Assembly: GCA_001800315.1 (NCBI GenBank) | Contig: MGVE01000016.1 | Span: 3,432 to 67,431 of the forward strand | Origin: Elusimicrobia bacterium RIFOXYA2_FULL_47_53 | GTDB taxonomy: Bacteria > Elusimicrobiota > Endomicrobiia > Endomicrobiales > XYA2-FULL-47-53 | Length of the DNA stretch: 64,000 bases | Reading direction: 5' to 3' | In this document: in pieces, positions 1 through 34,251 of the stretch | Layout: the number at the start of each line of letters is the position of its first letter | Numbering within the stretch: position 1 is the first letter of the stretch | The notes under the pieces: generated by a model | What the model was told of the DNA's origin: nothing | The model's input: only the letters and a program-made list of their open reading frames with translations | The model's database searches: none | Program-made: the position numbers and the translations under genes

Positions 1-1466
1 CCGACGGGTTTGAAGACGGAACCATCGCGCCGACCGCCGCCGGGACATCCATAATGTTCACGCCGGAGGAATCGCTCAACGCCCTGCGCCGCATGTATTT
101 CAAATATAAACAGTGGTCCTGGGGCAAAAACGGCTTCGCGGATTCTTTCAAGATCAATGTAAATGCCAAGTGCCCGTACGCGCTGGGGCTTGATAACGCT
201 CCCATTATTATCGGAATAGAAAACTATCGGACAGGCATGGTATGGAACACCTCAATGGCTAATCCGCACCTTTCGTCGGCTCTCTCGCGCGCCGGATTTT
301 CTACCGGTTCAGCCCGCCCCCTGGTCACGGCAAGCTCGCATGAGGGCGAATGGGAAAATCCCGATCCTGCTTCAGTCATGCCGCAAAAGGCCTTTGACAA
401 CGACACTTCAACCCGCTGGTCATCCCAGCATGGCAGCGATCCCCAGTGGCTCTGTATAGATTACAAAACGCCGAGAACAATTAATAAAGTAACCATTAGA
501 TGGGAAGCTGCCTACGCCAGAGCCTATAAAATTCAAACTTCGCTTGACGGCCACACCTGGACTGATGTTTTCTCAACCACAGACGGTGACGGGGGAACAG
601 ACATTATTACCTTTGATCCCGCGGAGTGCCGTTACCTGCGTGTTTACGGAACGCAGCGGGCGAATGTAAGCTGGGGATATTCCATATGGGAAATCAATGC
701 CGAATCCGTCAGCGAGAATGTCGCTCTGCATAAACCCGCTAACGCTTCTTCATACATTACTATGCCGCCTTATTATAACTATGTTCCTTCGTACGCGTTT
801 GACGGCCTGACGGCTCCGGCCGCGCCCGGAGATGAAGGTTATTTCTGGGCTTCGGTGCCCGAGTACCATCCCTGGATCTCCGTTGATCTTGGGGCCCCTA
901 CCCTGATAAACAGAATTGTTTTATTCTGGGAGCAAAACAGCCATGCCTCAAATTATTCAATTCAAGTTTCAACCGATGGTTCTTTCTGGAGCGCTATAAA
1001 CCCGGATGCGGGCGGAAACTTTGAGGCATGCCGCGCGAAGTTTGTCAGGCTTTACGGTAATGAGACACAACCTGTTACCTACAGCCTCTGGGAAATGCAG
1101 GTCTTCGGCTTCCCCACGGACAGCCCGCTTTCATTTACAGCTAAAGCGCCCTTCATTGACCCTGAATTTAAATTAGGCGAGGTGTATTCTTTTCCAAATC
1201 CGGCTTTGAACTCCAAAAAACCAACGATTCATTTTGAATGCGGCTTAGCCGATCGTCTTGAGCTGAAATTTTATGATATATCAGGAAGCGAACTGCATTC
1301 AACTCAAATCGCGTCATCGCCGTCTGTCATCGGGAACAAATACGCCTATGAGTACACTTGGGATACCTCAAATATCGCCCCTGGCGTCTATATTTACAGC
1401 GTCAAAGCGGAAAAGAACGGAGCCTCCGATATCAAGGTGCTCAAGAAACTTGCCATTGTAAAATAG
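1..1466 (+). CDS. 5-prime-truncated secreted protein: tail of a glucoamylase/GH144-like (PF10091-type) domain, two F5/8 type C (discoidin) domains, and a T9SS-type C-terminal sorting domain
   Basis: Frame 3 is open from base 3 to the listed Met at 54, so the CDS enters from the left edge. GLDNAPIIIGIENYRTGMVWN resembles the conserved end of glucoamylase-like glycosidases. Two discoidin signatures are present (FDNDTSTRWSS...YLRVYG...WEINA, and AFDG...FVRLYG...LWEMQVFG). The C-terminus YSFPNP...LELKFYDISGSEL...GVYIYSV...KKLAIVK fits the Por secretion tail pattern. Confidence 0.8.
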   Translation, partial: DGFEDGTIAPTAAGTSIMFTPEESLNALRRMYFKYKQWSWGKNGFADSFKINVNAKCPYALGLDNAPIIIGIENYRTGMVWNTSMANPHLSSALSRAGFSTGSARPLVTASSHEGEWENPDPASVMPQKAFDNDTSTRWSSQHGSDPQWLCIDYKTPRTINKVTIRWEAAYARAYKIQTSLDGHTWTDVFSTTDGDGGTDIITFDPAECRYLRVYGTQRANVSWGYSIWEINAESVSENVALHKPANASSYITMPPYYNYVPSYAFDGLTAPAAPGDEGYFWASVPEYHPWISVDLGAPTLINRIVLFWEQNSHASNYSIQVSTDGSFWSAINPDAGGNFEACRAKFVRLYGNETQPVTYSLWEMQVFGFPTDSPLSFTAKAPFIDPEFKLGEVYSFPNPALNSKKPTIHFECGLADRLELKFYDISGSELHSTQIASSPSVIGNKYAYEYTWDTSNIAPGVYIYSVKAEKNGASDIKVLKKLAIVK

Positions 1467-1486
1467 TAATTGTCGGAGCTGAGTAA

Positions 1487-2404
1487 ATGAAAAAAATTAT
1501 CTTTTACCTTTTAGCCGTAACCATTCTGCCTCTCGCCGGCATGTATTCCTACGCTGGAACTGCCGGTGCTGCGTTCCTCAAAATTGGAACCAGCGCCCGC
1601 GCGGTCGGAATGGGATCGGCTTATACCGCCGTTTCCGGAGATGTCAGCTCAATTCATTACAATCCCGCCGGTACCGCTTCAATTACCGCAAGACAGGCCA
1701 GCGCTATGCACACGCAGTGGTTTTGCGATATTACTCACGATGCCGCGAGTATTGTGCTTCCCGCGGACTGGGGGAACATCGGAGCGGGCCTGATCCGCCT
1801 AACGCAAGGCACGCTTGAGGGACGCGACGACAACCGGGAGTTAACCGATCCTTTCAGCGCCGGAGACACGGCGGCTTTTATTAACTACAGCGCTAAGCTC
1901 ACTCCGTCGGTTCATTCCGGTATGAACATCAAGTATGTCAAAGAGGAGATCGCGCAGTATTCTGCCTCGGGAATAGCTTTTGACGCCGGCGTTTTATACA
2001 CGCCGGAAAATGAACTGTATGCCTTAGGCCTGTCAGTTTTAAATGCGGGTCAGCGGATGAAATTTATTTCCGAAGAGTTTTCCATGCCTTTAACGATTTC
2101 CGGAGGGCTGTCATTTAACCCAGCGAAAAAAATACTGCTTACAGGCGATATAAAACATCAACCCGGAATCATCACGGATTTCTGCCTTGGGGTGGAATAT
2201 TCGGTTTTTGACGCTCTTCAGCTGAGAGCCGGCTGCGTTATAAACCCGCTATCCGGTTCTAAAACTTACTACAGTCAGAGTTTAATATCCAGCGCTTCGG
2301 CAGGGATAGGCTTTAAGTTTTTTGGAAACCGGCTTGATTACGCCTTCACACCAGACGACATCCTCGGGTCAACTCATCGCTTCAGTTTTTCGCTTGATTT
2401 CTAA
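1487..2404 (+). CDS. PorV/PorQ-family (UPF0164) outer-membrane beta-barrel, paired with the upstream CTD protein
   Basis: Signal peptide, then AAFLKIGTSARAVGMGSAYTAV...IHYNPAG. The barrel ends LDYAFTPDDILGSTHRFSFSLDF (terminal Phe). It starts 20 nt after the cargo stop. Confidence 0.75.
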   Translation: MKKIIFYLLAVTILPLAGMYSYAGTAGAAFLKIGTSARAVGMGSAYTAVSGDVSSIHYNPAGTASITARQASAMHTQWFCDITHDAASIVLPADWGNIGAGLIRLTQGTLEGRDDNRELTDPFSAGDTAAFINYSAKLTPSVHSGMNIKYVKEEIAQYSASGIAFDAGVLYTPENELYALGLSVLNAGQRMKFISEEFSMPLTISGGLSFNPAKKILLTGDIKHQPGIITDFCLGVEYSVFDALQLRAGCVINPLSGSKTYYSQSLISSASAGIGFKFFGNRLDYAFTPDDILGSTHRFSFSLDF

Positions 2405-2485
2405 CCGCAAACCCGTCCAAAACAAAAAAAATGAATCATAATAAGATCTGATTCAATTTATTTTTTAGGGATGGCGGGGAAATAA

Positions 2486-4444
2486 TTACTGGTTGGTTTT
2501 AGCCTGCGAGTCCTGCCATCTGGGCAGTGTAAAACAAAACTTGCTGCCTTTCTCAATTTTACTCTCTATCCAAACGCTGCCGCCGTGCAGTTCCAGGATT
2601 TTTTTCACTACCGCGAGGCCCAGCCCCGCTCCTTCCACCTGCCCCGTTTTGTATTCGTCTATCTGGTAGAATTTCTGAAATATTTTTTTATGCTCTTCGG
2701 AAGGTATGCCGAGCCCGTTATCCGAAACCTGAAGCATAACGAAATTGTTGTCAGCCAGCCCTCCGTTTATATGAATTATCTTTTCGGGCTTGTCGTTAAA
2801 CTTAACCGCGTTTTCAACTATATTTTCAACAACCTCTATAATCTTAGCCGTGTCAATCATCAGATCCGGCAGTCGGGAAAGTTCCTCTCCGACTATAACA
2901 GTTGTTTTATTTTTATCCAAAAAAGCTCCAAGGCCGAGCAGGCTTGTGTCAACAACTTTCTTTATGCTTATCCTTTCAGGGGTTAATTCGGTATACTCTG
3001 ACTCCAAAAGCGTGAATCTTATCAGCTTATCAACGAGCAGGTTAAGCGTGTTGCCTTCCCTTTCTATGGTAGTCAGCGCCTGCCTTGTCAGCTTATCTAA
3101 ATCTTTTGCCTTTTCCAGCAGCAGAGACGAATAGCCGTTTATAGCCGTCAATGGCGTGCGAAGTTTGTGGGAAATAAGCGCCAGGAAATCAATCTTCTGC
3201 TTGCCCTCTTTCTTTTCTTCCGTAATGTCTCTTAAAACGAAAATATGGCCTATGACATTTTTATCCTGGCCGGCTATCTTAGTGGCCATTACACTTAAAA
3301 ACAGCGACTTTCCTTTTACCCTTGAAAGCTCAAAGTTTACCGAGCGGGCCGTATCGGAGTTTATGGTTTCCCACGGCAGGGAGGGGGCGTAATCCGGTAT
3401 CATTTCTATAAAGCTTCTGTCTAAACTGTCTGTTTCACTCAGGCCCAGAAGCTCCCTCGCGGAATTGTTCAGCCTCATCACATTGAATCCGGCATCCGTC
3501 ACGACAGCGCCGTCGGCCATGGCTGAAAAAGTCGCGTTGAGTTCCTCTTTCTCCTGCTCAAGGCTGTTGAAAAGATAAGTGTTTTCAATTGCTATGGCGG
3601 CCTCAACCGCGAAAATAGACAGCAAATTCAGATCCTGTTCCGAAAACACCGCCTCTCTTTCCACTCTCGCCAGGTTAATCACACCCAGGAGCCTGCCTTT
3701 TCTCATCAGAGGGGCAGTCAGCGCGGATTTAATATCCTCATATGGCTCCAGGCCCAAAAACCTCGGGTCATTTTTTACATCTCCCTGTATCACGACAGGT
3801 TTCAGCTCTTTTGCCGAATATCCGGCTATCCTCTCTCCTAAACTCAGCTTTTTGTTAATAACATCATCTTTGCGAGAGCCGATAGCTACCTTCACAGTCA
3901 GTTCGTTAGCCTTTGAGTCATACAGCATTATGGAGCCGCTGTCGGCGCTCAATGTGTCGCTGGATAGTTTAAGAATAAGGTTTAAAAGCTCGTCAAGCCC
4001 CATTATGGAGCTTATAGCCTTGCTGACCTCGTAGAGGTTAACCAGCTGTTTTAATTCGCTGATCTCGGCCGAAAGCCTTTGCTTCTCAAAACAACGCTTA
4101 ACTATGAGGTCCAGCTCGGTAATATCAAATGTTTTGGGAACATAATCATAGGCGCCGAGCTTCATGGCCTGCACCGCGTTGGCAATAGTGCCGTGAGCCG
4201 TGATCATAATGACATCGGTCTTAGAGTAATTGTCCTTAATATGCTTAAGAACAGCGAGGCCGTCCATCTCGGGGAGTTTCAGGTCGGTTATGACTATTTC
4301 ACACGGGTTAGCCTTTAATACTTCTATCCCGCCTTCACCGCTGTCGGCGGAAAAAACTTCGTAGCCTTCGGATTTGAACAATTCCACGCAGGCTTTTCTT
4401 ATGTATTCGTCGTCGTCAATTACAAGTATGCTTTTCTTTTCCAT
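2486..4444 (-). CDS. hybrid sensor histidine kinase (REC-GAF-PAS-HisKA-HATPase)
   Basis: Receiver motif ILVIDDD...TDLKLPEMDG. GAF-like and PAS-like middle region. H-box ISHKLRTPL. ATPase boxes ENAVKF, DNGLGI, GAGLGLAV. Confidence 0.85.
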   Translation of the reverse strand: MEKKSILVIDDDEYIRKACVELFKSEGYEVFSADSGEGGIEVLKANPCEIVITDLKLPEMDGLAVLKHIKDNYSKTDVIMITAHGTIANAVQAMKLGAYDYVPKTFDITELDLIVKRCFEKQRLSAEISELKQLVNLYEVSKAISSIMGLDELLNLILKLSSDTLSADSGSIMLYDSKANELTVKVAIGSRKDDVINKKLSLGERIAGYSAKELKPVVIQGDVKNDPRFLGLEPYEDIKSALTAPLMRKGRLLGVINLARVEREAVFSEQDLNLLSIFAVEAAIAIENTYLFNSLEQEKEELNATFSAMADGAVVTDAGFNVMRLNNSARELLGLSETDSLDRSFIEMIPDYAPSLPWETINSDTARSVNFELSRVKGKSLFLSVMATKIAGQDKNVIGHIFVLRDITEEKKEGKQKIDFLALISHKLRTPLTAINGYSSLLLEKAKDLDKLTRQALTTIEREGNTLNLLVDKLIRFTLLESEYTELTPERISIKKVVDTSLLGLGAFLDKNKTTVIVGEELSRLPDLMIDTAKIIEVVENIVENAVKFNDKPEKIIHINGGLADNNFVMLQVSDNGLGIPSEEHKKIFQKFYQIDEYKTGQVEGAGLGLAVVKKILELHGGSVWIESKIEKGSKFCFTLPRWQDSQAKTNQ

Positions 4445-4452
4445 AGTGAGGT

Positions 4453-5874
4453 TTACGCGGGGGGGAGGCTGAAAGTAAATTTGCTTCCTTTTCCAAGTTC
4501 GCTTTCAACCGAGACCCTGCCGCCCATTGATTCCATAATTCCTTTCACGATTGCGAGGCCAAGACCGGTGCCCTTTGGCTTTGGGTTCTTGCCCTGGGTG
4601 CCGATTATCTGCTCAAATTTATCAAATATTTTGTCCAGTTTATCGGAAGGTATTCCTATGCCGCTGTCGCGCACCGAAACAAATATGAGTTTCTGCTTTT
4701 CGTCGTAACCGGCGCCCACGGAAATCGCCCCTTCCTGCGGTGTGAACTTTACGGCGTTGCTTAGAAGGTTAATAAGCACCTGCCTCGTCCTGTCCGGGTC
4801 CCCTAATGCAGGTGGAAGTTTTTCCGGCGCCTCTGAAGTAAATACAATATGCTTTTCGTCAAATTGGGGTTTAAACAACTGAATAGTTTCAGTAATGACG
4901 CCGAGGAGATCCAGCGTCTGGAGCGATACTTCCATCTTTCCGCGCTCTATCTTCGCCACATCCAGAAGGTCGTCAATAAAACGGCTGAGGCGCAGGGCGC
5001 AGTTTTTCATTATTTCAAGGTATTCCTTCTGCTTGTCGTTAATGGCTCCGGCCGTGCCTTTAAAAAACAGGTCTATGTAGAGCTTAAGGGAAAGCAGAGG
5101 GGACCGCAGTTCGTGGGTTACGCTTGATACAAAATCGCTCTTCATCTGGTCAAGCTCTTTAAGCTTTTCGCTCATCTTGTTAAATTCCGCGGCCAGATCT
5201 CCCAGTTCATCTTTGGTTTCAACGGATATTTTGTGGTCCAGCTTGCCCTGCCCGATTATACCGGCCCCCTGGGCCAGAATTTTTATAGGTTTCGTCATCA
5301 TGGCGGTCAACACAAAAGCGCCCAGAAGCCCGCAGAGCAGAGCCGCCGCAGACACAAGCATGATTCTTTTGCGCGCTCCGGATAAGGCGTCTTCAACTTC
5401 TTTATTAATCAATTCCTGATAAAACCCCAGCCTTACGGTTCCCTGACGGTCCTCACTGACCACGACCGGCATGGACAAATCAAGCAGATCCCGGCCGTCG
5501 CCGCCCTTGTATTTAATGACAGTATAATCCGAAGCCGCGAAGGCCTTTTTACTTACCTCGTCGCCCGGGACGGCTCCCAGAAGGTTGATATCGGTATGCG
5601 CCAGGATCCTGCCCGTACCGTCGGTGACCATGGCGTAGGCGAGCCCCTTTGTATTCTTAATTAGTTTCAGGTAATTGAGAAGAATTATCTCATCTTTGAC
5701 AATCAAAGATTCCTTGGCGGCCTGAGCCAGGCTTTTGACCATTCCGGCCCTGCTGTTTTCAAACTCTCTTACCAGAAAGCGGCTCTCGGAAATTATGAAC
5801 GAAACGCTCACTCCCGAAATAATGATAATTACAAGAAGACTGATAAGCAGGCTGAATTTAGTTTTTAATCTCAT
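4453..5874 (-). CDS. membrane sensor histidine kinase (2 TM + periplasmic sensor, HAMP, HisKA, HATPase)
   Basis: N-terminal TM and a second TM before a HAMP-like DELGDLAAEFNKM. H-box VTHELRSPL. SNAVKFT, DSGIGI, GTGLGLAI. There is an 8-nt gap to the downstream kinase. Confidence 0.85.
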   Translation of the reverse strand: MRLKTKFSLLISLLVIIIISGVSVSFIISESRFLVREFENSRAGMVKSLAQAAKESLIVKDEIILLNYLKLIKNTKGLAYAMVTDGTGRILAHTDINLLGAVPGDEVSKKAFAASDYTVIKYKGGDGRDLLDLSMPVVVSEDRQGTVRLGFYQELINKEVEDALSGARKRIMLVSAAALLCGLLGAFVLTAMMTKPIKILAQGAGIIGQGKLDHKISVETKDELGDLAAEFNKMSEKLKELDQMKSDFVSSVTHELRSPLLSLKLYIDLFFKGTAGAINDKQKEYLEIMKNCALRLSRFIDDLLDVAKIERGKMEVSLQTLDLLGVITETIQLFKPQFDEKHIVFTSEAPEKLPPALGDPDRTRQVLINLLSNAVKFTPQEGAISVGAGYDEKQKLIFVSVRDSGIGIPSDKLDKIFDKFEQIIGTQGKNPKPKGTGLGLAIVKGIMESMGGRVSVESELGKGSKFTFSLPPA

Positions 5875-5885
5875 CGTATGTCCCG

Positions 5886-7853
5886 TTATTTTCTGTTCTT
5901 TAACTCTTCTCTGGCCCTGTTTAAATTATTATTTATCTTCTCATTTTCCGGGTCAAGGTCGGATGCCTTCTGCCAGTTCCTTATGGCATCCTGCAGGTTG
6001 CCTGACTCATAGGCCTTTAAGCCTTCTCTGTTGAAGGTTTCGGCCTCGGTTTTCCGCATTGCCTCATATTCAATCCTGGCCTTATTCAGGCTTTCCGAAA
6101 TAGAAGAATTCCCGGGATCAAGCTTTGCCGCCTCGGCAAGAAACTTTACGGCTGAATTATAATCTTTTTCCTGGTAAGATTTCATGCCCCTGTCCGCGTA
6201 CTCCTGAGCCATCATCTTTCTTGTTTCTTTTAAGTATTTTTCAGCCTCGGCCCGGCCGGGAATAAGTTTTAGAGAGTATTCAAACTGGGCAACGGCCGCT
6301 TCCCAGATGCCTTTTTTATATAACTCCTGGCCTTTCTTGTAGGCCGCGTCGGACAGTTTCGTCAACTCGGCCAGTTCTTCTCTCTTTTTCTTTTCAGCGA
6401 GTTTCTCAAGCTCGGCTTTCGCCAGCTCAATATTCTCGCGCGCCGGTTTGTGCGCCGGATCCATCAAAAGAAGTTTTTCCCAGAGTGAAATCGCGTCGTG
6501 ATACTGGCCCTGCCTGAAGAAATCCTGGCCCTGCCTGAATATGCTCTCGGCTCTAAGGGACTTCTGCCTGCCAAGGGCCGCGTCTAATTTAGGCGCATAG
6601 GCCGCCACGGAGGCGTCGGCCGGGAAAAGCTGAACCATGCTGTCGTAAAGCTCTTTTGCCTCGGAAAGCCTGGCGTCATTTATATACGCCTCAAGCAGGG
6701 TAAAATATTTATCAACTTTAACGGAACTTATACCGGAGCGGATTAAAGCTGAAATGGTTTTGGCTTCTTCATTAAGCGGATCAACGGAAAGGACATAATT
6801 TGCTTCAATGTTGGCGCTTATCAGATCCTTTTTCTGATAATACCTTACCGCTTTGGCCAGCCTCGCCGATAAATTTGAATCCACAAGCGCTTTTTCATGA
6901 TCTCTGCCAAAACGGTAATTAATGCCTATCCTGTGGGTATTGCCAAGAATTCCGTAAGGAGCGAAAGCGTAGTCAACCGAAATATACTCGTTGCCGAGCC
7001 CTATTCCGCCTACTAACCCGGGTTCAATATCGTACTGAGCTGTTTGTGACTTATACCTGTAGCCGGCGCGCAGGGAAATCCAATCCGTCAGCTTATAGTC
7101 AAGCCCGGCATTAAGAGACAGCGCCGCGTCCGCTGGCATATTGGCGTCTAATGAAAATGTCAGAGTGTCGTACAGAAAATTCTGTGCGAGCCCCAGTTTA
7201 TAATTTGAGGGGAGGGGATACTCTTCTTTAACGAACTTAACCTGAGTTCCCAGATTCTGCGCCGCTAAAGCAAGTTTTAACTCGTTGCCAATCCAGCCTG
7301 CGGCGTTATTTAATCCGGTTTTAAGGCCGTATATAAAACCAAGATCCGCGGCGTAAGCGACGGCTGATTCTCCGGCAAGGTTTTCGCTCAAATATTTAAT
7401 GTTCATGCCGCAATCAACTCCGTAGAACTTAGCTCCATAGGACAAAACCGCGGCCAAATCGGAAGCTTTCACTGTATTTTGAAGCCTTGCGCCGTAATTG
7501 TCATAAGCCTCCACATCGCCGGATGAGAGGTAATAAAGGCTTAAACCCGCGGTGCCGTGGTTTTTTATGGGGTGGGCATAGGAAGCAAACTGGTAGTTTA
7601 TTCCTTCAAACCAGCTTAGATGCATTAACGACACCTGGCGCGAGCGAAGCCGCGAAAGCCCCGCGGGGTTCCAATAAGGAGCGCTGGCGTCATCGGCCAC
7701 GGCTGAGAACGCTCCGCCTGAACCGAGAGCCTTTGCGCCCGCCTCAATCTTAAGAAAATTCATACCCGTGCTTCCCGCTGACCCGGCAAACAGCCTGGCG
7801 GGGAATAAAAGCAACATGGAAAGAATGATTTTATGCCATAAAATATTTTTCAT
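5886..7853 (-). CDS. PorV/PorQ-family barrel fused to a C-terminal TPR-repeat domain
   Basis: Signal peptide, MNFLKIEAGAKALGSGGAFSAV...YWNPAGLSRL. Barrel end VDYAFAPYGILGNTHRIGINYRF. About 330 aa of TPR-like repeats follow (e.g. GQYHDAISLWEKLLLMDPAH, GNLQDAIRNWQKASDLDPEN). Its start overlaps the upstream cargo stop by 4 nt. Confidence 0.75.
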   Translation of the reverse strand: MKNILWHKIILSMLLLFPARLFAGSAGSTGMNFLKIEAGAKALGSGGAFSAVADDASAPYWNPAGLSRLRSRQVSLMHLSWFEGINYQFASYAHPIKNHGTAGLSLYYLSSGDVEAYDNYGARLQNTVKASDLAAVLSYGAKFYGVDCGMNIKYLSENLAGESAVAYAADLGFIYGLKTGLNNAAGWIGNELKLALAAQNLGTQVKFVKEEYPLPSNYKLGLAQNFLYDTLTFSLDANMPADAALSLNAGLDYKLTDWISLRAGYRYKSQTAQYDIEPGLVGGIGLGNEYISVDYAFAPYGILGNTHRIGINYRFGRDHEKALVDSNLSARLAKAVRYYQKKDLISANIEANYVLSVDPLNEEAKTISALIRSGISSVKVDKYFTLLEAYINDARLSEAKELYDSMVQLFPADASVAAYAPKLDAALGRQKSLRAESIFRQGQDFFRQGQYHDAISLWEKLLLMDPAHKPARENIELAKAELEKLAEKKKREELAELTKLSDAAYKKGQELYKKGIWEAAVAQFEYSLKLIPGRAEAEKYLKETRKMMAQEYADRGMKSYQEKDYNSAVKFLAEAAKLDPGNSSISESLNKARIEYEAMRKTEAETFNREGLKAYESGNLQDAIRNWQKASDLDPENEKINNNLNRAREELKNRK

Positions 7854-10800
7854 TTGATTATTATGATTTTACCGGACTTATGCTCCCTGGCGTTTTCAAT
7901 ATAATAAACATACAACCCGCTCGCGACACTTTCTCCCGAACTGTTTTTTCCGTCCCAGACAAGCTCCTCTTTGCCGCCGCTGAAGTTGTAGTCAAGGGCC
8001 CGCACAAGCTCGCCCGAAACTGTATAAACGCGTATAGTCGCCTGAGAACTTAACCCGGTAAAGGTAATGCCTCCGCTTTCGGTACCGGTCTCATCCTTGC
8101 CGTCAAAGGGTTTCCATGGCACCGGATAAGCGTAAGCGCTGGATAAATCGGTATCGCTGTTGCCCGAGACAGCATAAATTGAAAAGTGGTTAACACGGGC
8201 CGTTACGGTATTTTTCACCGTATCAACTTCCGAATTTGGATTTCTCACCCAGAGTTTTTTTGTCTCGTCCAGCCCGTAAATACTCAGGGTATTTTCCTTT
8301 ACCAGCCTGCCGTTTGAAGTGGTTACGAAACCATCGCCGTTTTCAGCATAGGGGATAACGATTGAAACACTTTTCTGGAATTTATCGCCGGCCAGTGTTC
8401 CGGCGTAAGTTCCTTTGTACATCAGGAATTTTCTCACACCCGAGTTGACCGCTCCGGCATAGGGGCCTCTAAGGCCGATAGCTTTGCCGTCGGCGTCGGT
8501 AAGCAGGGTTCCAATAGCGGGACTGGTGTCTATAATTATGTAATAATCAAAATCAACCGCTCCAGGCACAATCGTGACTTTTGTAGCGGAATCTCCCGCC
8601 GTAAAAATATTTTCAGCCAGGCAGTCCACGACTGTTGTGAATTGCCAGATTTTTCCTGAGATGATTGCGTTTCCGTAAAGGTCTTTCGCGTCAGTGGATA
8701 CCGTCACGCGGTATTTATAACCCTTTTTCCAGAGAGCCGAAAAACTCAGCGTTTTATCTGAATACTCAACAGTGCCTGAGACAGGCTCATTAATATCAGC
8801 CCCGAGGTTATCTTTAACAGCTCTTACCGATATAGCGCTTTTTGCCGCGGCAGGATCCATATCGTCACTGAGGAAAGTAACCCTGGCAGGTTCTGACACG
8901 GCTATGCCTATGGCGTCTTCCGCGGGAGAAACAGTGCCCGAAAGAGCGGGCATATCAGTTATGGTAAACTCCCAGATCTTCGCGGCGGCCATGGCGTTGC
9001 CGTAAAGATCCTGCGCTCCGGTGGAGATTGTCACCTGATATTTGTAGCCCTTCTTCCAAAGCGCGGAAAATGTAAGCGTCTTTGAAGAGGTTGAATATTC
9101 AACGGTTCCGCCGGCCGCTTCGCTTATCGCGACCCCAGCGCTGTCCCGCACAGCTATTACGGTAATCGCCGCGACAACAGTGGCAGAGCTCATATCATCA
9201 TTCCAGAACACAGCTTTAACCGGTTCAGCAGGGCTTACTCCGGAAGAATTTTCAGAAGGGGAAACGGTGACTATTGCAGGAAGGTTCATCGTGGTAAATT
9301 CCCAGACTTTCGCGGCGGCCATGGCGTTGCCGTAAAGATCCTGCGCTCCGGTGGAGATTGTCACCTGATATTTGTAACCCTTTTTCCAAAGCGCGGAAAA
9401 TGTAAGCGTCTTTGAAGAGGTTGAATATTCAACGGTTCCGCCGGCCGCTTCGCTTATCGCGACCCCAGCGCTGTCCCGCACAGCTATTACGGTAATCGCC
9501 GCGACAACAGTGGCAGAGCTCATATCATCATTCCAGAACACAGCTTTAACCGGTTCAGCAGGGCTTACTCCGGAAGAATTTTCAGAAGGGGAAACGGTGA
9601 CTATTGCAGGAAGGTTCATCGTGGTAAATTCCCAGACTTTCGCGGCGGCCATGGCGTTGCCGTAAAGATCCTGCGCTCCGGTGGAGATTGTCACCTGATA
9701 TTTGTAACCCTTTTTCCAAAGCGCGGAAAATGTAAGCGTCTTTGAAGAGGTTGAATATTCAACGGTTCCGCCGGCCGCTTCGCTTATCGCGACCCCAGCG
9801 CTGTCCCGCACAGCCTTGACGGTAATCGCCGGCACCACGGTTGAAGAACTCATATATTCGCTGAATACCGCGCTGATAATATCATTTACACCGACATCCG
9901 CGGCATTTTCCGGCGGGGAAACTGAACCGGTAATGGCCGGATAGGTAGGGGCAACGGTGATGTTCTTGTAGGCGACATTGTTGTTTTCAAGCGTCTCGTT
10001 GATTATTCCGCCCGGATAATCAACCGTCACATAAATATCGGTGCTTCCGTTAACCGCGGCCCACTGAAATGTCTCGGACCTGCTGCTGCCCGCGGGTATT
10101 GGCGTCTGGTAAACCGTTGAGCCAATCAACAATCCGCCAGAATCGGGATTGCCGGCATAAAAACCCACAAAGGTTGATGTGCTTTTGAATGCTTTGAAGA
10201 AAACATTCCATTTTCCTGGTATCGCCGCAATACTGCTCCATGTTGAACCAAGATCAGTGCTTCCGGCCAAACAATCTAATGTTGTTCCGGAATCAAGCCA
10301 CAACTGATATCCATTTGCTTTGTCTGATAAATTATAGGCACAAATCCAATAGGTAGTGCCGGAAACCAGGTAGGCAGCCGTGTCAAACTCAAAATCCTGC
10401 CAGCCGAATGAAGTAAATGTGCTGACTACCGCGGTATAAGCCAACTTATCATAACTTTGAAGGCTGGGGCGAATAAAAGAGCTTGCCTCGGTGCGTCGTA
10501 TTTCAACACCCATGGCATCTGAAGTTTCTCCAATGTTATTTATTAAAAGTGAAACCTTTCCCAAGTACATATTCTCCGCGGGGATAAAATACTGACCCCA
10601 GGAAATAGTACTGCAAACTGAAGTATAATCGCTTGAAACACCAACCATATAATCATGCTTGCCAAAAGGAATTTCGTAGGAATACAGGCCGCCGTTATTT
10701 TTGATTACGGCGCTTATGGAAATATTTTCGCTGGGTTCCGGGGTATTATTGCTGAAGGTTATATCGGTACCGGACACAGAAAGGTCGGGAGACGCGGCGT

Positions 10801-10870
10801 AAACGGGCGCAATTAGCGAGAGCGCGGTCACTAAAATAACGGGGATTTGTTTTCGCAATAGTAAAATCAT
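7850..10870 (-). CDS. 1006-aa secreted surface protein with four SbsA/Big_5-like Ig repeats and a T9SS-type C-terminal domain
   Basis: Signal peptide ...APVYAAS. The 110-aa Ig-like units each end ...GYKYQVTISTGAQDLYGNAM...WEFTT. C-terminus ITFTGLSSQATIRVYTVSGELV...LVWDGKN..G..VASGLYVYYI...GKIIIIK. Confidence 0.8.
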   Translation of the reverse strand: MILLLRKQIPVILVTALSLIAPVYAASPDLSVSGTDITFSNNTPEPSENISISAVIKNNGGLYSYEIPFGKHDYMVGVSSDYTSVCSTISWGQYFIPAENMYLGKVSLLINNIGETSDAMGVEIRRTEASSFIRPSLQSYDKLAYTAVVSTFTSFGWQDFEFDTAAYLVSGTTYWICAYNLSDKANGYQLWLDSGTTLDCLAGSTDLGSTWSSIAAIPGKWNVFFKAFKSTSTFVGFYAGNPDSGGLLIGSTVYQTPIPAGSSRSETFQWAAVNGSTDIYVTVDYPGGIINETLENNNVAYKNITVAPTYPAITGSVSPPENAADVGVNDIISAVFSEYMSSSTVVPAITVKAVRDSAGVAISEAAGGTVEYSTSSKTLTFSALWKKGYKYQVTISTGAQDLYGNAMAAAKVWEFTTMNLPAIVTVSPSENSSGVSPAEPVKAVFWNDDMSSATVVAAITVIAVRDSAGVAISEAAGGTVEYSTSSKTLTFSALWKKGYKYQVTISTGAQDLYGNAMAAAKVWEFTTMNLPAIVTVSPSENSSGVSPAEPVKAVFWNDDMSSATVVAAITVIAVRDSAGVAISEAAGGTVEYSTSSKTLTFSALWKKGYKYQVTISTGAQDLYGNAMAAAKIWEFTITDMPALSGTVSPAEDAIGIAVSEPARVTFLSDDMDPAAAKSAISVRAVKDNLGADINEPVSGTVEYSDKTLSFSALWKKGYKYRVTVSTDAKDLYGNAIISGKIWQFTTVVDCLAENIFTAGDSATKVTIVPGAVDFDYYIIIDTSPAIGTLLTDADGKAIGLRGPYAGAVNSGVRKFLMYKGTYAGTLAGDKFQKSVSIVIPYAENGDGFVTTSNGRLVKENTLSIYGLDETKKLWVRNPNSEVDTVKNTVTARVNHFSIYAVSGNSDTDLSSAYAYPVPWKPFDGKDETGTESGGITFTGLSSQATIRVYTVSGELVRALDYNFSGGKEELVWDGKNSSGESVASGLYVYYIENAREHKSGKIIIIK
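8960..9815 (-). repeat. near-identical 330-bp tandem repeat (about 2.6 copies) inside the surface-protein CDS
   Basis: The string cgcggcggccatggcgttgccgtaaagatcctgcgctccggtggagattgtcacctgatatttgta recurs at 8981, 9311 and 9641, a period of 330 bp (110 codons). Copies 2 and 3 look essentially identical by eye over hundreds of bases. Confidence 0.9.
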
Positions 10871-10961
10871 CGGTTTTATTATATAATATTTTAATAAAAA
10901 TAGCAGAAATATTTAATAAAAGTATTTGTTTTTTAACCGTTAAAACCCGATAAAATAGCCA

Positions 10962-10990
10962 TTGACAAAGCGGCGGATACCTGCTATTAA
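10962..10990 (+). promoter_or_regulatory. candidate sigma70-type promoter for the riboswitch-led transcript
   Basis: TTGACA (10962-10967), a 17-nt spacer, then TATTAA (10985-10990) in the divergent intergenic region. Confidence 0.4.
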
Positions 10991-11065
10991 TATAGCGGAA
11001 GAGGAAATGAGTATTCTTTGAAATTTGAGTTTTCAAATTGAGTCAAATTGCAGGTTTGTCTTAAG

Positions 11066-11160
11066 TTTCGTGCGATAAAGGCAAATTCCGGCGAAAGCCG
11101 GAAGACGCAAAACCACGGGGCTTCTTGCCGACAACGGCACAGCCAGCCGGGTTACCGAAC
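11066..11160 (+). promoter_or_regulatory. probable c-di-GMP-I (GEMM-I) riboswitch aptamer
   Basis: GGCAAA + UUCCGGC-GAAA-GCCGGAA (a perfect 7-bp stem with a GNRA tetraloop) + GACGCAAAACC + a second hairpin (GGCU..UGCCG-ACAA-CGGCA..AGCC) + AGCCGGGUUACCGA. This has the same order and nearly the same conserved blocks as the V. cholerae Vc2 aptamer (GGCAAACC..GAAA..GGGACGCAAAGCC...GCGGGGUUACCGA). It lies in the 5-prime leader of the CDS starting at 11218. Confidence 0.65.
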
Positions 11161-11186
11161 AACAATGCAGTAGTCCATACATTGTT

Positions 11187-11214
11187 GCTCAGACTGTCTA
11201 AACGGCAGGTGAGC
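11187..11214 (+). promoter_or_regulatory. hairpin that can sequester the Shine-Dalgarno sequence (possible riboswitch expression platform)
   Basis: GCUCA-GA-CUGUC [UAAAC] GGCAG-G-UGAGC. The 3-prime arm contains AGGUGAG (11207-11213), 4 nt before the ATG at 11218. Confidence 0.4.
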
Positions 11215-11217
11215 GAA

Positions 11218-12717
11218 ATGGACACAAAAAAAGCGTTATCATTAGTTTTCTCGGTGGCTTTCAGCTTAGGGTTATTCGTTTCAGGCGCCCTTTCTGAAGT
11301 CATCATTATTATTGAACCCGATCCCGAGCCTATCATTGATCCTATAACCCCTCCGACCGAACCGCCCGTAGTAGAGCCTCCAGCTCCGCCCCAGCCTCTG
11401 GGAGCAGATATTAATGTTGACCCTAATGTAATTAACCTCAAGAGCAACAGAAACTATATAACCGCCTACATTGAACTCGCCTCTGATATTTCAGCCGCTG
11501 AAATCAAAGTATCATCCGTAAAAGTAACAACCGTCAACGGAACCGCGATAACTCCGGTAAGCGCTCTGCTTTCGCCCACGGCTATCGGCGATGAAAACGC
11601 GAATTCTATCCCTGATCTTATGGTTAAATTCAACTATGACGAACTAAAACCATATTTCTCGGAAGGCCCGCTGACAATCTCCATAAGCGGCGAGCTGAAC
11701 AACGGCACAGCCTTCAGCGGGGAAAATACTGTAAAAGCCACTTATCATGAAAGCAACGGAAATTCCAATCAGCAAACCGTAAATACTCAGTCAGCGGTAA
11801 AAACTGAAAAAAACTTCAAATTCACGCTTGGCAACAATGTCCCTGCCGGAGCGTATGTAAGAAAGGCTCTGGTCTGGGAGCAGAAACTCCCTAAACTGGA
11901 GGCTCAAAAAGAGCTATGGTGGTACAAGGCTGAGAAAAACTGGCAGGCTATTCTTGGACATCTGTCCAATGAGAGCTATTCTAATGTCCTGCGAGGCACT
12001 GGCTACGAGTGGGATGTGATAAACGAGCTCAACGAGAACCGCACATTAGGCCTAAACGAAGTGGTCGTCAGGCTGGACAACGAGAGAAAGAACACTTATC
12101 CCGTTCTCGTGCTTGTCTGCGATACGCCGTCTCAGGACGCGGAAGAACGGATGACAGCGTCAATGTATGGTTTAAATCCAATCGGTGAAAAAGCCAAATT
12201 CGTAAAGAAAGGATCTAACCCCGACAAAACAATAACGCTGTATTACAATGAGAGCGATCTGCGCGGGGAAGCTGAAAGCGACCTTAAAATATATTACTGG
12301 AGTGAAGCCGTAAATGAGTGGCAGGTCGCCCCGGACTGCACTATTGACTATGCTGACAACAGCATCAGCTGTCAGAGCGATGTCAGCACCTTTTACCGGA
12401 TTATGGCCGTAAAACCCGCGCCGGCGCAACCCGAGGAGGCGGCTCCGGCCGCTCCCAATACCCTTAAACAGAACTATCCCAATCCCTTCAATCCGGCCAC
12501 AACCATTGAGTACTCCGTTTCCCAGGACTGCCATGTGACTTTGAAGCTTTACAATGTCGCGGGAGAGCTTGTAGCGACAATAGTGGATGAATTCCAGTAC
12601 GCCGGCAGCCACTCGGTGTACTACGACGGGGGAGAGCGCCTCTCCCGCGGGATATACTTCTACCAGCTTATAGCCGGCAATTTTGTTGACACCAGAAGAA
12701 TGGCGGTTTTGAAATAA
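11218..12717 (+). CDS. secreted protein with a Pro-rich linker and a canonical T9SS type-A C-terminal sorting domain
   Basis: I chose the start at MDTKKALSLVFSVAFSLGLFVSGALS (signal peptide) rather than the track start at 11125, which lies inside the riboswitch. C-terminus LKQNYPNPFNPATTIEYSV...VTLKLYNVAGELV...GIYFYQL...RRMAVLK. Confidence 0.8.
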   Translation: MDTKKALSLVFSVAFSLGLFVSGALSEVIIIIEPDPEPIIDPITPPTEPPVVEPPAPPQPLGADINVDPNVINLKSNRNYITAYIELASDISAAEIKVSSVKVTTVNGTAITPVSALLSPTAIGDENANSIPDLMVKFNYDELKPYFSEGPLTISISGELNNGTAFSGENTVKATYHESNGNSNQQTVNTQSAVKTEKNFKFTLGNNVPAGAYVRKALVWEQKLPKLEAQKELWWYKAEKNWQAILGHLSNESYSNVLRGTGYEWDVINELNENRTLGLNEVVVRLDNERKNTYPVLVLVCDTPSQDAEERMTASMYGLNPIGEKAKFVKKGSNPDKTITLYYNESDLRGEAESDLKIYYWSEAVNEWQVAPDCTIDYADNSISCQSDVSTFYRIMAVKPAPAQPEEAAPAAPNTLKQNYPNPFNPATTIEYSVSQDCHVTLKLYNVAGELVATIVDEFQYAGSHSVYYDGGERLSRGIYFYQLIAGNFVDTRRMAVLK

Positions 12718-12739
12718 TGCCGGCGTTCTGCTGTTTCGT

Positions 12740-12786
12740 AAACCTCTTAATTATTTAAAATTCTTTTGAGAGGTTTAATTTTTTTT
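12740..12786 (+). terminator. possible intrinsic terminator or attenuator between cargo and PorV gene
   Basis: AAACCUCU (12740-12747) pairs with AGAGGUUU (12769-12776), followed by a U8 tract. The loop is long (21 nt), so confidence is moderate. Confidence 0.4.
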
Positions 12787-12800
12787 GTATAATCTAAAAC

Positions 12801-13727
12801 ATGAACCTAAAAATAATTCCTGCTCTGCTCGCTTTTGTATTTATCGCTTCAGGAGCCCATGCCGTAACCACCGGGGTTGATTTCCTCAAACTTGGCATCG
12901 GCGCGAGGGAAACCGGCATGGGGGAAGCCTCGGTCGCCAGCCACTCCGGCGTGGATTCCAGCTACTGGAACCCGGCCGGACTTTCCGATATAACTCAAAC
13001 TGAACTCAGCCTTATGCACAGCGACGCCATTATAGACGCGTCGCTTAATTTTGTCGGAGTGGCCGTCCCGTTAAAAAACGGCGATGTTATCTGCGTAAAC
13101 ACTATTGTCTATGTAATTAAACCCGTGCCCGTCACGGACGCGAGCGGCCAGTCCATGGGCGACCTGAACTGGCTTGACGGAGCCGCGGCAGTCTCGTACG
13201 CAAGAAATATTACTGACAGCATTTCGGCGGGCCTTAGCGCGAAAATAGTCCACAGAATGGAGAGCGACCCTATCTTTGGCAGAAGCGAGGGAAGCGCCTA
13301 CGCTTTTGACGCAGGCGCCATTTATAAAACTCATTACAAAGGATTAAGTGTCGGGTACGCGCTTTTAAACACCGGAACGGAACTGCAGATGACCGGCGAA
13401 GTTAAAAAAGATACTCTTCCTCAGACCTCACGGCTTGGATTAACCTACGAATACGAGCTTGACAAAAACCTTCATCTTGTGGGTTCATGGGATTTTCACA
13501 GAATACTGGATAACTCCTGGCACACCGGCGCGGGCGTTGAAATAAATATCCGAAACGAATTTTTTCTGCGCACCGGATTTTATGAGAAAGACGGCAGTAT
13601 AAGCGGCAATACTTTCGGTTTTGGATTTATGGTTAATCAGTTCCGGTTTGATTACAGCAGCATACCGGTAAGCGAAATGACAGGATATAACCGAAATAAC
13701 AAGTTTTCCTTAAGTGTATTTTTTTAA
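12801..13727 (+). CDS. PorV/PorQ-family outer-membrane beta-barrel
   Basis: Signal peptide ...SGAHA. VDFLKLGIGARETGMGEASVA...SYWNPAGLSDI. C-terminal FRFDYSSIP...NNKFSLSVFF. Confidence 0.75.
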   Translation: MNLKIIPALLAFVFIASGAHAVTTGVDFLKLGIGARETGMGEASVASHSGVDSSYWNPAGLSDITQTELSLMHSDAIIDASLNFVGVAVPLKNGDVICVNTIVYVIKPVPVTDASGQSMGDLNWLDGAAAVSYARNITDSISAGLSAKIVHRMESDPIFGRSEGSAYAFDAGAIYKTHYKGLSVGYALLNTGTELQMTGEVKKDTLPQTSRLGLTYEYELDKNLHLVGSWDFHRILDNSWHTGAGVEINIRNEFFLRTGFYEKDGSISGNTFGFGFMVNQFRFDYSSIPVSEMTGYNRNNKFSLSVFF

Positions 13728-23181: not shown

Positions 23182-23292
23182 AATTCACCGTATCAATCAA
23201 GCTTGTGACAAAGTTTGTAAAACACTTGTAAAATAACTAAGAATATCGCAGTATCTCAGTTGTTATGTTGTTTACAAATTCAGGGAGATAAA

Positions 23293-24849
23293 ATGACCTC
23301 GGTTAAGCCAAATCCAGAAAAGCGAAATCTGAGCAGAATTAAATGCGTTTTGCCCGTAAAATTAGTTGACATAAATTTGGTCCAGGAGGAATTTTTCGTT
23401 GAATGTGTCAACATAAGCAAGACTGGGATGTCAATAGTCAGCAATATGGACAACATATCAACCCCAATAGAGGTATTGCTTGACCCCTACAACACTATGC
23501 TTAAAAAAGCTGATACGCTCCAGGTATCAGCTGAAATCAAATGGGTAAAGAAATTCCATGACGGAAAAGCATTTTATTACGGGCTTACTTTTATTAACCT
23601 GTCACCCGAAAACAAGAATGATATTGATCGTTTTGTTGAATCGGTAGCCGACTTAGTAGCAAGCGCCCAATCGGGCAACGGTGTTTATGTTCCCAAAAAC
23701 AGCCAGCTCAATTATAACAAGGACTTTATAATTAATAAGCGCCTAAAATGGCTGTCAGAAAAAACAAATGTGGAATATAAAAACATTTCTAACTTTACGG
23801 TTGATACCGAGTCAATGAAAGGCAATATAGAAAACTGCATTGGGGCCGTGCAAGTCCCGCTCGCAGTCGCAGGCCCCATAAAAGTAAACGGACAATATGC
23901 TAAGGGAGACTTTTATATTCCTCTTTCTACTACCGAAGGCGCCCTCGCAATGACATATGACCTCGGTTGCAGGGTAATATATAAGGCTGGCGGCGCAAAC
24001 ACAAAGATAATTAAAGATGAAGTTCATATTTCGCCGGTATTTAAGCTTAACAGCATTGCTGAAGGCGATGAATTTATTGACTGGATAAATAACCATTTTG
24101 AACAGATTAAACAGCGTGCAGAAAGCACAACAAGGTACGGCAAGCTGTTGCGTACTGAATGTATAAAGATGGGCCTAAAGATAATTGTTAAATTCATTTA
24201 TTCAACTGGCGACGCCCAGGGATTAAATATGATTAATAAAGGGACCGATGCCTCATGTAAATATATAGTTGAACAGAAAAAAATTGAATATTACCACAGG
24301 GCTAACTACTCCGGAATCAAGAAACTCAACATGGACAATATATATAACGGCAACGGCAAGGCGGTTGTCGCTGATGTTACTATTCCAAAGAACATATTGC
24401 GTGCTTTGCGAGTTACACCCGAGGAAATGGTTGAATATTACAACACCTGCCTTTTAGCAAGTACCTATGCCGGCATGATTGGCATTAATGCCCACATAGC
24501 AAACGGGATCACGGCCATGTTTATCGCCTGCGGCCAGGATGTAGCGGATATTTCGGTTTCCAGCGTAGGTTTTATGTCCTACGAACTTACCAATAAGGGT
24601 GATTTATACGGAAGTCTTTACATACCAAACCTATTTGTTGGTACCGTAGGTGGAGGAACAAAATTGGGTGGTCAGCGTGAATGTCTTGACATGATGGGGT
24701 GCTCGGGGACCGGCAGTTCAAAAAAGTTTGCAGAGCTCGTCACGGCCACTGCATTAGCCGGCGAAATAGCTGTCGTCTCGGCACTTCTCAATAACAACTA
24801 TGTCCAAGCGCACGAAAAGTACGGTCGCGCAAAACGGTCAGTAATATAA
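23293..24849 (+). CDS. PilZ domain fused to a class-I-like HMG-CoA reductase catalytic domain
   Basis: I took the start at MTSVK, after RBS AGGGAGA. PilZ motifs: RNLSR (RxxxR) and, 25 aa later, NISKTG (N-x-S-x-x-G). HMGR blocks: ENCIGAVQVPLAVAGP, STTEGALAM, GDAQGLNMINKG, VGTVGGGT. Confidence 0.75.
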   Translation: MTSVKPNPEKRNLSRIKCVLPVKLVDINLVQEEFFVECVNISKTGMSIVSNMDNISTPIEVLLDPYNTMLKKADTLQVSAEIKWVKKFHDGKAFYYGLTFINLSPENKNDIDRFVESVADLVASAQSGNGVYVPKNSQLNYNKDFIINKRLKWLSEKTNVEYKNISNFTVDTESMKGNIENCIGAVQVPLAVAGPIKVNGQYAKGDFYIPLSTTEGALAMTYDLGCRVIYKAGGANTKIIKDEVHISPVFKLNSIAEGDEFIDWINNHFEQIKQRAESTTRYGKLLRTECIKMGLKIIVKFIYSTGDAQGLNMINKGTDASCKYIVEQKKIEYYHRANYSGIKKLNMDNIYNGNGKAVVADVTIPKNILRALRVTPEEMVEYYNTCLLASTYAGMIGINAHIANGITAMFIACGQDVADISVSSVGFMSYELTNKGDLYGSLYIPNLFVGTVGGGTKLGGQRECLDMMGCSGTGSSKKFAELVTATALAGEIAVVSALLNNNYVQAHEKYGRAKRSVI

Positions 24850-34016: not shown

Positions 34017-34125
34017 TCATATTTTTAAAACCACAAACGATTTAGTGTAAATTATGGTTACATTATAGCTTTGGATAAATAATAGGATATTAACAAATAT
34101 CGAAAAGTTAATAAGCAATAGCTGA

Positions 34126-34251
34126 CAGAGCGGAAAAGATTTGGTAACTGTTTCCAAACTGCTTGGCCACTCCAGCATCAGAAATACAATGATATACGCC
34201 CACTTAGCCCCAAAACACATCTCAGAATCAATTGTTAACCTTCACTATTGA
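34126..34251 (+). pseudogene. 41-codon remnant of a tyrosine recombinase/integrase C-terminus
   Basis: Translates to QSGKDLVTVSKLLGHSSIRNTMIYAHLAPKHISESIVNLHY*, i.e. the conserved LGHSSI..T..YAHL block including the catalytic Tyr. An in-frame stop lies immediately upstream, so no full gene is present. Confidence 0.7.

Follow-up and report, generated by a model that had tools for sequence, protein, structure and literature searches.

In a 64,000-nucleotide stretch of the genome of Elusimicrobia bacterium RIFOXYA2_FULL_47_53 (contig MGVE01000016.1, positions 3,432 to 67,431; hereafter the window), we found four copies of a two-gene cassette. The first gene encodes an exported protein ending in a C-terminal domain (CTD) resembling the type A domains known from type IX secretion systems (T9SS), and the second encodes an outer-membrane β-barrel of the PorV/PorQ family. 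The cassette is conserved in Elusimicrobiota and neighbouring candidate lineages. Both parts were characterised by family and fold, the 1:1 coupling of their genes is conserved and enriched, and tails and barrels have diversified together. By analogy with the partners of PorV and PorQ, we consider it probable (roughly 0.6) that each barrel is a dedicated receptor or anchor that would hold the retained CTD of its neighbour at the cell surface. The host belongs to Elusimicrobiota and is a member of neither Bacteroidota nor the Fibrobacteres–Chlorobi–Bacteroidetes (FCB) group. Proteins of the window recur on contigs of the Rifle aquifer metagenome and in assembly GCA_001800235.1, named 'Elusimicrobia bacterium RIFOXYA1_FULL_47_7' by NCBI.

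A first-pass annotation of the sequence had proposed that every gene with such a tail is followed by its own barrel gene, and an open reading frame (ORF) check of the window recovered ORFs at all of its coordinates. Cargo genes C1 (1–1466), C3 (11218–12717) and C4 (55620–58973) precede barrel genes B1 (1487–2404), B3 (12801–13727) and B4 (59008–60393) on the plus strand, and C2 (7850–10870) precedes B2 (5886–7853) on the minus strand. The reported spacings were exact: 20 nt from C1 to B1 (1466 to 1487), a 4-nt overlap of C2 and B2 (7850–7853), 83 nt from C3 to B3 (12717 to 12801) and 34 nt from C4 to B4 (58973 to 59008). No terminator-like site was present in any of the cargo–barrel gaps of the window modules. 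A six-frame scan of the whole 64 kb with hidden Markov models (HMMs) built from the window barrels and tails returned exactly four barrels and four tails, the next best matches having E > 0.3. Every tail gene has a co-oriented barrel gene immediately downstream, and for four specific co-oriented adjacencies among about 50 genes we estimate a chance of the order of 1e-6 to 1e-7. The modules are old paralogues, sharing 22–37% identity in both tail and barrel. The best sigma-70-like match of the region (TTGAGA, 16 nt, TATAAT; 11/12) lies at 12766–12793 in the gap between C3 and B3, and by this sequence B3 may in addition be transcribed from a promoter of its own; the same had been predicted for porV, which follows porU.

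The cargo proteins differ in everything except the tail. C1 is truncated by the 5′ edge of the window, which holds the 3′ part of the gene with Pfam matches to F5_F8_type_C (142.8 bits) and Glycoamylase (49.6 bits) and the CTD at about 1167–1466. In other assemblies of the same organism (seen at locus L100) the full-length protein has 1,562 amino acids (aa), with SBBP, malectin, glucoamylase-like and two F5/8 type C (discoidin) domains in front of the CTD. C2 (1,006 aa) comprises a signal peptide, a CARDB domain (34 bits), four Big_5 Ig-like repeats (181 bits) and the CTD at about 7850–8149. A tandem repeat at 8962–9831 (unit 330 bp, 2.6 copies, 98% identity) corresponds to one 110-aa Big_5 repeat per unit, and the lengths of C2 in assemblies of the same organism (1,006, 896 or 786 aa) differ by one repeat each, reflecting either real copy-number variation or assembly collapse. 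C3 (499 aa) consists of a signal peptide, a Pro-rich linker, one domain without family assignment and the CTD (12418–12717). C4 (1,117 aa) carries a signal peptide, DUF7948 (221 bits), SBBP β-propeller repeats (96 bits), three IPT/TIG domains (109 bits) and the CTD (58674–58973). The passenger domains have nothing in common between modules, and in relatives the range extends to a C11 peptidase and to a giant protein of 3,150 aa. As the passengers differ completely, the CTD is the shared element.

The barrels come in plain and extended forms. B1 (305 aa, with a signal peptide) and B3 (308 aa) are plain barrels, whereas B2 (655 aa) combines a barrel (about 6876–7853) with a TPR domain at the C-terminus that presumably lies in the periplasm (5886 to about 6875; TPR_2 at 69 bits, residues 430–644) and B4 (461 aa) a barrel (about 59008–59955) with a C-terminal OmpA-like peptidoglycan-binding domain (about 60061–60309; PF00691, 72 bits over residues 352–434). 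Gene callers place the start of B4 at 58915, but the start at 59008 yields a canonical signal peptide. The barrel–OmpA architecture of B4 was the commonest among homologues, some of which bear a C-terminal SH3_3 domain, or TPR and OmpA domains. Since the barrel C-terminus is periplasmic, these OmpA, TPR and SH3 extensions would be periplasmic tethers.

All four barrels passed NF033709, the NCBIfam model of the PorV/PorQ subfamily (curated cut-off 90 bits, whole-protein scores), with 153.4, 176.8, 155.0 and 106.4 bits for B1 to B4, respectively; the match covered residues 28–315 of B2 and 37–307 of B4. They all missed the equivalog models for PorV (NF033710, at least 250 bits; 52.9, 67.9, 82.0 and 33.9 bits for B1 to B4) and PorQ (NF033711, at least 220 bits; 106.2, 110.5, 75.5 and 85.0 bits). 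The PorV2 equivalog (NF052325, at least 325 bits) was missed as well, with 74.1, 77.8 and 81.4 bits for B1 to B3 and a position outside the best 25 families for B4. Against the PorP/SprF model TIGR03519 (cut-off 90.55 bits), B3 scored 17.4 bits and B1, B2 and B4 had no match. The window barrels are members of the PorV/PorQ family, but they are not PorV, PorQ, PorV2 or PorP/SprF. B1 and B2 also passed Pfam UPF0164 (24.9 and 30.6 bits, cut-off 21.4). A search of PDB sequences with the barrel profile gave Flavobacterium johnsoniae PorV (6h3i_F, E = 2e-21), followed by TodX at 0.02. We modelled one barrel, B3, with AlphaFold2 (pLDDT 79.6) and obtained 14 strands with a FadL-like N-terminal segment inside the barrel; the top Foldseek matches of this model were PorV (8gl6_F and 6h3i_F, TM-score 0.79–0.80), with FadL at about 0.59. 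Thus HMM, PDB sequence search and fold all confirmed the assignment of the barrels to the PorV/PorQ family.

The FadL-like fold would also fit another role, in which the barrels would import hydrophobic or other small products of upstream enzymes and the adjacency would reflect a metabolic operon. Weak matches to Pfam Toluene_X (PF03349) and the glycosidase-like domains of C1 would fit such uptake, but the Toluene_X scores (19.7, 25.8 and 16.7 bits for B1 to B3, no match for B4) lie below the gathering cut-off of 29.7 bits, and the lead of PorV over FadL/TodX amounts to 0.2 in TM-score and some 19 orders of magnitude in E-value. Moreover, the upstream proteins have no common catalytic theme; several are pure Ig or β-propeller proteins and the CTD is their sole constant. 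FadL/TodX and the UPF0164 proteins of Treponema share the superfamily fold of the window barrels, but they have not been reported in pairs with CTD proteins. In view of the scores, the diversity of the passengers and the enrichment statistics given below, we rejected FadL-type uptake, which appears very improbable, along with chance adjacency.

Against the curated models (TIGR04183, 23 bits; PF18962, 27 bits) the tails rank as type-A-like CTDs, with scores at or close to the threshold. In full-length scans C3 passed TIGR04183 with 30.7 bits, C1 (22.1 bits), C4 (17.0 bits) and C2 (16.7 bits) scored below, and all four remained under the PF18962 cut-off (20.5 bits for C1 and 23.5 bits for C4). 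The local CTD HMM matched C1 at E = 7e-37 and C4 at E = 1.6e-34, and C2 passed FlgD_ig (33.1 bits, cut-off 27). When 110-aa tails were scanned in isolation, all 18 non-redundant sequences from the window and related loci matched TIGR04183 at E <= 0.01 (best 2.9e-10). Eleven of the 18 matched the retained CTD of PorU and five that of PorZ, the tail of C2 reaching 42.3 bits against the PorZ C-terminal region, while the type B model TIGR04131 matched only one tail, weakly (E = 9e-4). The tail profile found the PorU CTD in PDB entry 6za2 (E = 7e-4) and the translocon-bound substrate CTD 8glj_D. Designed WRAP-T/WD40 proteins among the PDB matches were discarded as an artefact, being sums of roughly 5-bit matches over eight repeats. 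An AlphaFold2 model of the C3 tail (pLDDT 88.7) showed a seven-stranded β-sandwich whose Foldseek matches were generic Ig-like folds, with the RemA CTD (8gl6_D) at rank 47; the fold cannot separate a T9SS CTD from FlgD or other Ig domains. Taken together, the matches of the isolated tails, the PDB profile matches and the C3 model supported the type-A-like identity of the tails. The last residues of the four tails are K, K, K and H, which fits the near-invariant basic end residue of type A CTDs (PMC10994853, PMC6539836). An apparent protein 'PorV2' in the first of these papers proved to be 'PorV' followed by citation superscript 23.

To follow the pairing in relatives, we used an alignment of B3 orthologues as search query, the four window barrels being too divergent for a joint alignment, and obtained nine related loci. 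The barrel-first loci were drawn from Endomicrobiales, Elusimicrobia GWB2_63_22, Firestonebacteria and several unclassified metagenome-assembled genomes (MAGs), as species genomes or long contigs. Here, 19 of 21 further barrels were directly preceded by a co-oriented ORF with a CTD at its end. The two exceptions were a barrel at a contig edge (locus L010) and a true orphan (L015). No orphan CTD gene occurred within the barrel-first loci, and three modules were found in tandem in Firestonebacteria and likewise in Elusimicrobia GWB2. Among loci of the lineage reached from the CTD side, L103 had two CTD genes followed by two barrels, L102 had a small CTD protein encoded after the barrel inside a conjugative-element-like region, and L104 was an orphan CTD gene on a 3.5-kb contig. 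Hence the claim that every CTD gene is paired held within the window (4/4), but not without exception in the relatives.

Some of these loci deserve separate mention. At L102 (7087–8540 of an Elusimicrobia contig, ENA ERZ27315071) the barrel gene and the gene for the 179-aa CTD protein overlap by 4 nt and are surrounded by genes typical of conjugative elements (VirB4/TraC, VirB8, TrbI, S74 peptidase, ParA and resolvase). Given this setting, the module may move horizontally. The orphan barrel at L015 (9932–10837, from an unclassified MAG) is 31% identical to B3 and adjoins genes for a HicB-like protein and a DUF1016-type nuclease, with no CTD gene near it. Loci L010–L014 come from GTDB species genomes titled 'Clostridia bacterium' and bear the C2–B2/C3–B3 double module with outer-membrane barrels 41–46% identical to B3; their Clostridia label is probably a mis-assignment or binning error.

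Over the 271 kb of Elusimicrobia, Endomicrobiales and Firestonebacteria loci, 27 CTD genes were counted, 24 with a barrel directly downstream, two with a barrel in the same operon and one orphan. Because the barrel HMM included the OmpA and TPR extensions, it also caught two OmpA-only neighbours, so that the 30 counted barrels correspond to 28 true ones. As CTD-first control we took 80 environmental loci chosen by the common 'NYPNPFNP' tail type. Of their 134 CTD genes, one was paired, 105 were orphans and 28 lay at contig edges. With identical models and thresholds, the ratio of coupled to orphan genes was therefore 26:1 in the lineage against 1:105 in the control (Fisher p = 2.4e-25), an enrichment of about 2,700-fold. 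The three CTD-first lineage loci alone differed from the control with p = 7e-5. Different species and different paralogue classes alike retain the adjacency. The family scores and the conservation and enrichment of adjacency, on which the first-pass annotation had made its proposal depend, all came out in its favour.

Tail and barrel identities co-varied over 23 modules (Mantel r = 0.60, p <= 5e-4), a pattern also expected from simple co-inheritance of a duplicated cassette, and the best tail match and the best barrel match mostly fell in the same module class. These data bear on the idea that the two proteins are co-regulated neighbours without physical link, their adjacency stemming from joint duplication of two envelope genes. 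Co-inheritance alone could indeed account for the co-variation, a promoter-like site precedes B3, and porU and porV were predicted to be transcribed independently (PMC5445135). Nevertheless, the coupling was kept across at least four ancient paralogue classes (22–37% identity within the window) and several lineages, and it persisted despite complete turnover of the passenger domains. Together with the enrichment over the control and with the fact that the founding members of the barrel family are proven CTD binders, this makes mere co-regulation highly unlikely.

We favour the dedicated anchor because the CTD is the constant element beside each barrel and because those founding members bind CTDs. 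In the proposed mechanism, the first gene would encode a Sec-exported, multi-domain surface-type protein (lectin/glycosidase-like, Ig-repeat adhesin-like, β-propeller/TIG or peptidase) whose only constant feature is the C-terminal, seven-stranded type-A-like CTD. The second gene would supply a dedicated 14-stranded PorV/PorQ-family barrel in the outer membrane, which would bind the CTD of its neighbour through its extracellular loops. The CTD would be retained instead of cleaved, so that the barrel would keep the protein on the surface at 1:1, and the OmpA, SH3 or TPR extension, where present, would tie the complex to peptidoglycan or to periplasmic partners. To cross the outer membrane, the cargo might use a translocon of the SprA type whose gene lies in another part of the genome, or might take a different route.

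Precedents for such an arrangement exist in Porphyromonas gingivalis, where PorU:PorV and PorZ:PorQ form 1:1 sub-complexes and the CTD protein is anchored by the barrel (PMC5562754). PorU and PorZ keep their CTDs, perhaps under the protection of 'cognate PorV-like barrels' (PMC10202324); on PorV, it is the extracellular loops to which CTDs bind (PMC10994853); and porV follows porU directly after a gap of 75 bp (PMC5445135). These pairs resemble the window modules as proposed here in that a PorV/PorQ-family barrel holds one surface protein through a retained type A CTD at about 1:1; the gene order, cargo then barrel, is that of porU–porV, and the window tails match the C-terminal regions of PorU and PorZ. 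However, in Bacteroidota PorU and PorZ are two special cases among dozens of cargo proteins served by one PorV shuttle, whereas in the lineage of the window pairing is the rule for essentially all sampled CTD genes and the cargo proteins are not sortase or lipopolysaccharide-delivery proteins. The window barrels also differ from PorV and PorQ in falling under the equivalog cut-offs, in being about 100 aa shorter, in often bearing OmpA, TPR or SH3 tails, and in coming from a phylum not known for T9SS. The shared PorV shuttle has the same barrel family and fold, and its cargo tails end in a conserved basic residue (PMC10994853), but there one barrel serves many cargo proteins by transient binding followed by PorU cleavage, in contrast to the 1:1, genetically hard-wired modules. 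In the CTD-first control, 105 of the 106 assessable CTD genes had no barrel nearby.

The same two-gene logic, a cargo-specific barrel encoded next to its cargo, is known from PorP/SprF and type B cargo such as SprB/SprF of F. johnsoniae, where the barrels are required for secretion and surface anchoring of their cargo (PMC9143113, PMC12618676). Those systems employ another barrel family (TIGR03519) and another CTD class (TIGR04131), and they work with a demonstrated T9SS. A further likeness to the proposed anchor is BamG–BamH of the Bacteroidota β-barrel assembly machinery (BAM), in which a 14-stranded FadL-family barrel forms the platform for a surface protein via its extracellular loops, and bamG2–bamH2 is a paralogous pair in one operon (PMC12578637). 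BamG chains were among the Foldseek matches of B3, but the similarity is weak (TM-score 0.42–0.53; NCBIfam BamG model E = 1e-3, for B1 only), and, unlike the window modules, BamH is a lipoprotein without CTD and BamG is bound to BamA.

Several observations weigh against the dedicated anchor. Three of the four window tails are under the curated CTD cut-offs in full-length scans. The window barrels have about 305 aa compared with 402 aa for F. johnsoniae PorV; being about 100 aa shorter, they have shorter loops, and their CTD-binding surface may differ. The co-variation of tails and barrels is no proof of cognate specificity, and the orphan barrel at L015, the orphan CTD gene at L104 and the variant gene orders at L102 and L103 are exceptions to the pairing. 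Large folded proteins cannot get through a plugged barrel of 14 strands, so the cargo would have to cross the outer membrane by a translocon or another route. Finally, physical binding, surface location and CTD retention are what we infer.

An alternative that dispenses with the translocon altogether is a periplasmic complex, in which the barrel would receive the CTD at its plug or periplasmic face and the cargo would remain in the periplasm, forming a scaffold between outer membrane and peptidoglycan with the OmpA, SH3 or TPR extensions. The extensions of many barrels, peptidoglycan-binding or TPR, are necessarily periplasmic, and around C4–B4 lies a conserved cluster of envelope genes (OmpA-like, Omp85-like and small β-barrel). 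Yet the passengers are typical of extracellular or adhesive proteins (CARDB, Big_5, IPT/TIG, discoidin, malectin, glucoamylase-like, C11 and S74 peptidases), and in the only solved examples the CTD contacts the extracellular loops of PorV (PMC10994853). We thus regard the periplasmic arrangement as an unlikely one.

As the first-pass annotation had stated, no T9SS core gene was visible in the window: searches of the 64 kb with Pfam and NCBIfam gave none of the families porK/L/M/N (gldK/L/M/N), sov/sprA, porT, porU and porW. Likewise, none appeared in about 10 kb past the right edge of the window (precomputed Pfam only) or among the annotated neighbours in related loci. Published surveys place T9SS only in Bacteroidetes/FCB (PMC4793230, PMC11205867), and we found no literature linking Elusimicrobia with T9SS. 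These results would suit a self-contained export without SprA or PorKLMN, in which the CTD and its own barrel, perhaps with BAM or the translocation and assembly module (TAM), both translocate and anchor the cargo. The strict 1:1 ratio of cargo to barrel is also the opposite of a shared shuttle (in P. gingivalis, 110 free PorV per 2000 substrates; PMC5562754), and in BamG–BamH there is a precedent for a barrel of the FadL family in partnership with BamA and with a surface protein attached to it (PMC12578637). If Elusimicrobiota, Firestonebacteria and their relatives have no SprA/PorKLMN, CTD and barrel would represent a minimal export and display system, possibly ancestral to T9SS, from which the Bacteroidota T9SS might have recruited PorV as shared shuttle, with porU–porV and porZ/porQ as relics. 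However, only about 77 kb of this genome was covered, and T9SS core genes are normally scattered in genomes (PMC5445135). In addition, the modelled barrel, with its 14 strands and internal FadL-like N-terminal segment, is too small for folded cargo of 500–3000 aa. Both the self-contained export and its role as T9SS precursor are therefore possible but doubtful.

A search of plasmids with B3 (tblastn) revealed the same cassette on plasmid pRMAR01 of Rhodothermus marinus DSM 4252 (L105 = NC_013502.1, locus 5592–10029), and this find also speaks against a requirement for the absence of T9SS. There, RMAR_RS14115 encodes a 1,132-aa hypothetical protein with a divergent CTD and overlaps the start of RMAR_RS14110, a PorV/PorQ-family gene (NF033709, 215.9 bits). 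Neighbouring CTD genes on pRMAR01 are orphans. One neighbour encodes an FG-GAP protein whose type A CTD passes the cut-off, followed by a gene for a TonB-dependent receptor. Since Rhodothermaceae have cell-attached T9SS-type CTD proteins (PMC6539836), cassette and T9SS can occur side by side, and the case for a T9SS-independent system is weakened accordingly. R. marinus is a cultured FCB bacterium, so the cassette idea is directly testable.

The first-pass annotation had regarded such a cassette as not described for PorV. Cognate CTD–barrel anchoring itself is known, from the adjacency of porU and porV and from the binding of PorU to PorV and of PorZ to PorQ (PMC5445135, PMC5562754, PMC10202324), but the general per-cargo rule is new. 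We found no literature on per-cargo PorV-family barrels for type A CTDs, nor on such a cassette outside Bacteroidota, and a 2025 study describes type A CTDs as all recognised by PorV (PMC12618676). PorV is usually viewed as a shared shuttle and cognate barrels as peculiar to type B cargo or to PorU/PorZ, whereas lineages outside the known range of T9SS hard-wire one PorV-family barrel to each type-A-like cargo. Annotators of these phyla should refrain from deducing a T9SS from the label 'T9SS type A sorting domain'. The natural CTD–barrel pairs provide a data set for CTD–carrier specificity and bear on the evolution of T9SS carriers, in which dedicated anchors may have preceded the shared shuttle or come after it. 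They also hint at how surface layers are built in poorly known diderm phyla, including tethers from outer membrane to peptidoglycan that would bear large external proteins.

Two of the window modules are flanked by further conserved genes. Downstream of B2 on the minus strand, after a gap of 11 nt, lies a gene for an sCache–HAMP–histidine kinase (HK1, 4453–5874), followed after 8 nt by one for a REC–GAF–PAS–histidine kinase (HK2, 2486–4444). Kinase orthologues with 49–63% identity, across genera, occupy the same side of the B2-type barrel at L007 and L012–L014. C2, B2 with its TPR domain, HK1 and HK2 form a conserved co-oriented four-gene unit (window 2486–10870; L007, L012, L013 and L014). 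Speculatively, and by analogy with PorA–PorV–PorXY of P. gingivalis, this unit might link the surface module to signalling; were the cassette a precursor of T9SS, the operon would hint that some modules pass surface signals across the outer membrane.

Directly downstream of C4–B4, on the plus strand, a gene at 60504–61184 encodes a 226-aa DUF2934/OmpA-like protein with OmpA-family matches, and a 71% identical orthologue holds the same position in Firestonebacteria (L017). The module with its barrel–OmpA protein is part of a conserved envelope cluster (window 55620–64000; L016, L017 and L106), whose members are the 226-aa DUF2934/OmpA protein, a 134-aa protein, a 200-aa small β-barrel, DUF5670, a 513-aa OmpA protein, an Omp85-like protein, DUF1207 and DUF3108. 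Another Elusimicrobia contig has this cluster too, and Firestonebacteria have part of it.

The remaining genes of the window are housekeeping genes, many genes for two-component proteins and envelope genes (BamA/TamA-like, TamB-like and OmpA-like). A class I, NADPH-type 3-hydroxy-3-methylglutaryl-coenzyme A (HMG-CoA) reductase is encoded at 23260–24849 and has an N-terminal PilZ domain according to precomputed Pfam; this fusion suggests, from its sequence, control of the mevalonate pathway by cyclic di-GMP. Two Fic-domain genes, one with DUF4172, are situated at 32895–35456 in the segment of lowest GC content (39.6%, against about 45–48% elsewhere), which may be an acquired island. A single ORF at 46033–50097 encodes a 1,354-aa protein in which CheB methylesterase, CheR methyltransferase, PAS, histidine kinase and receiver domains are fused.

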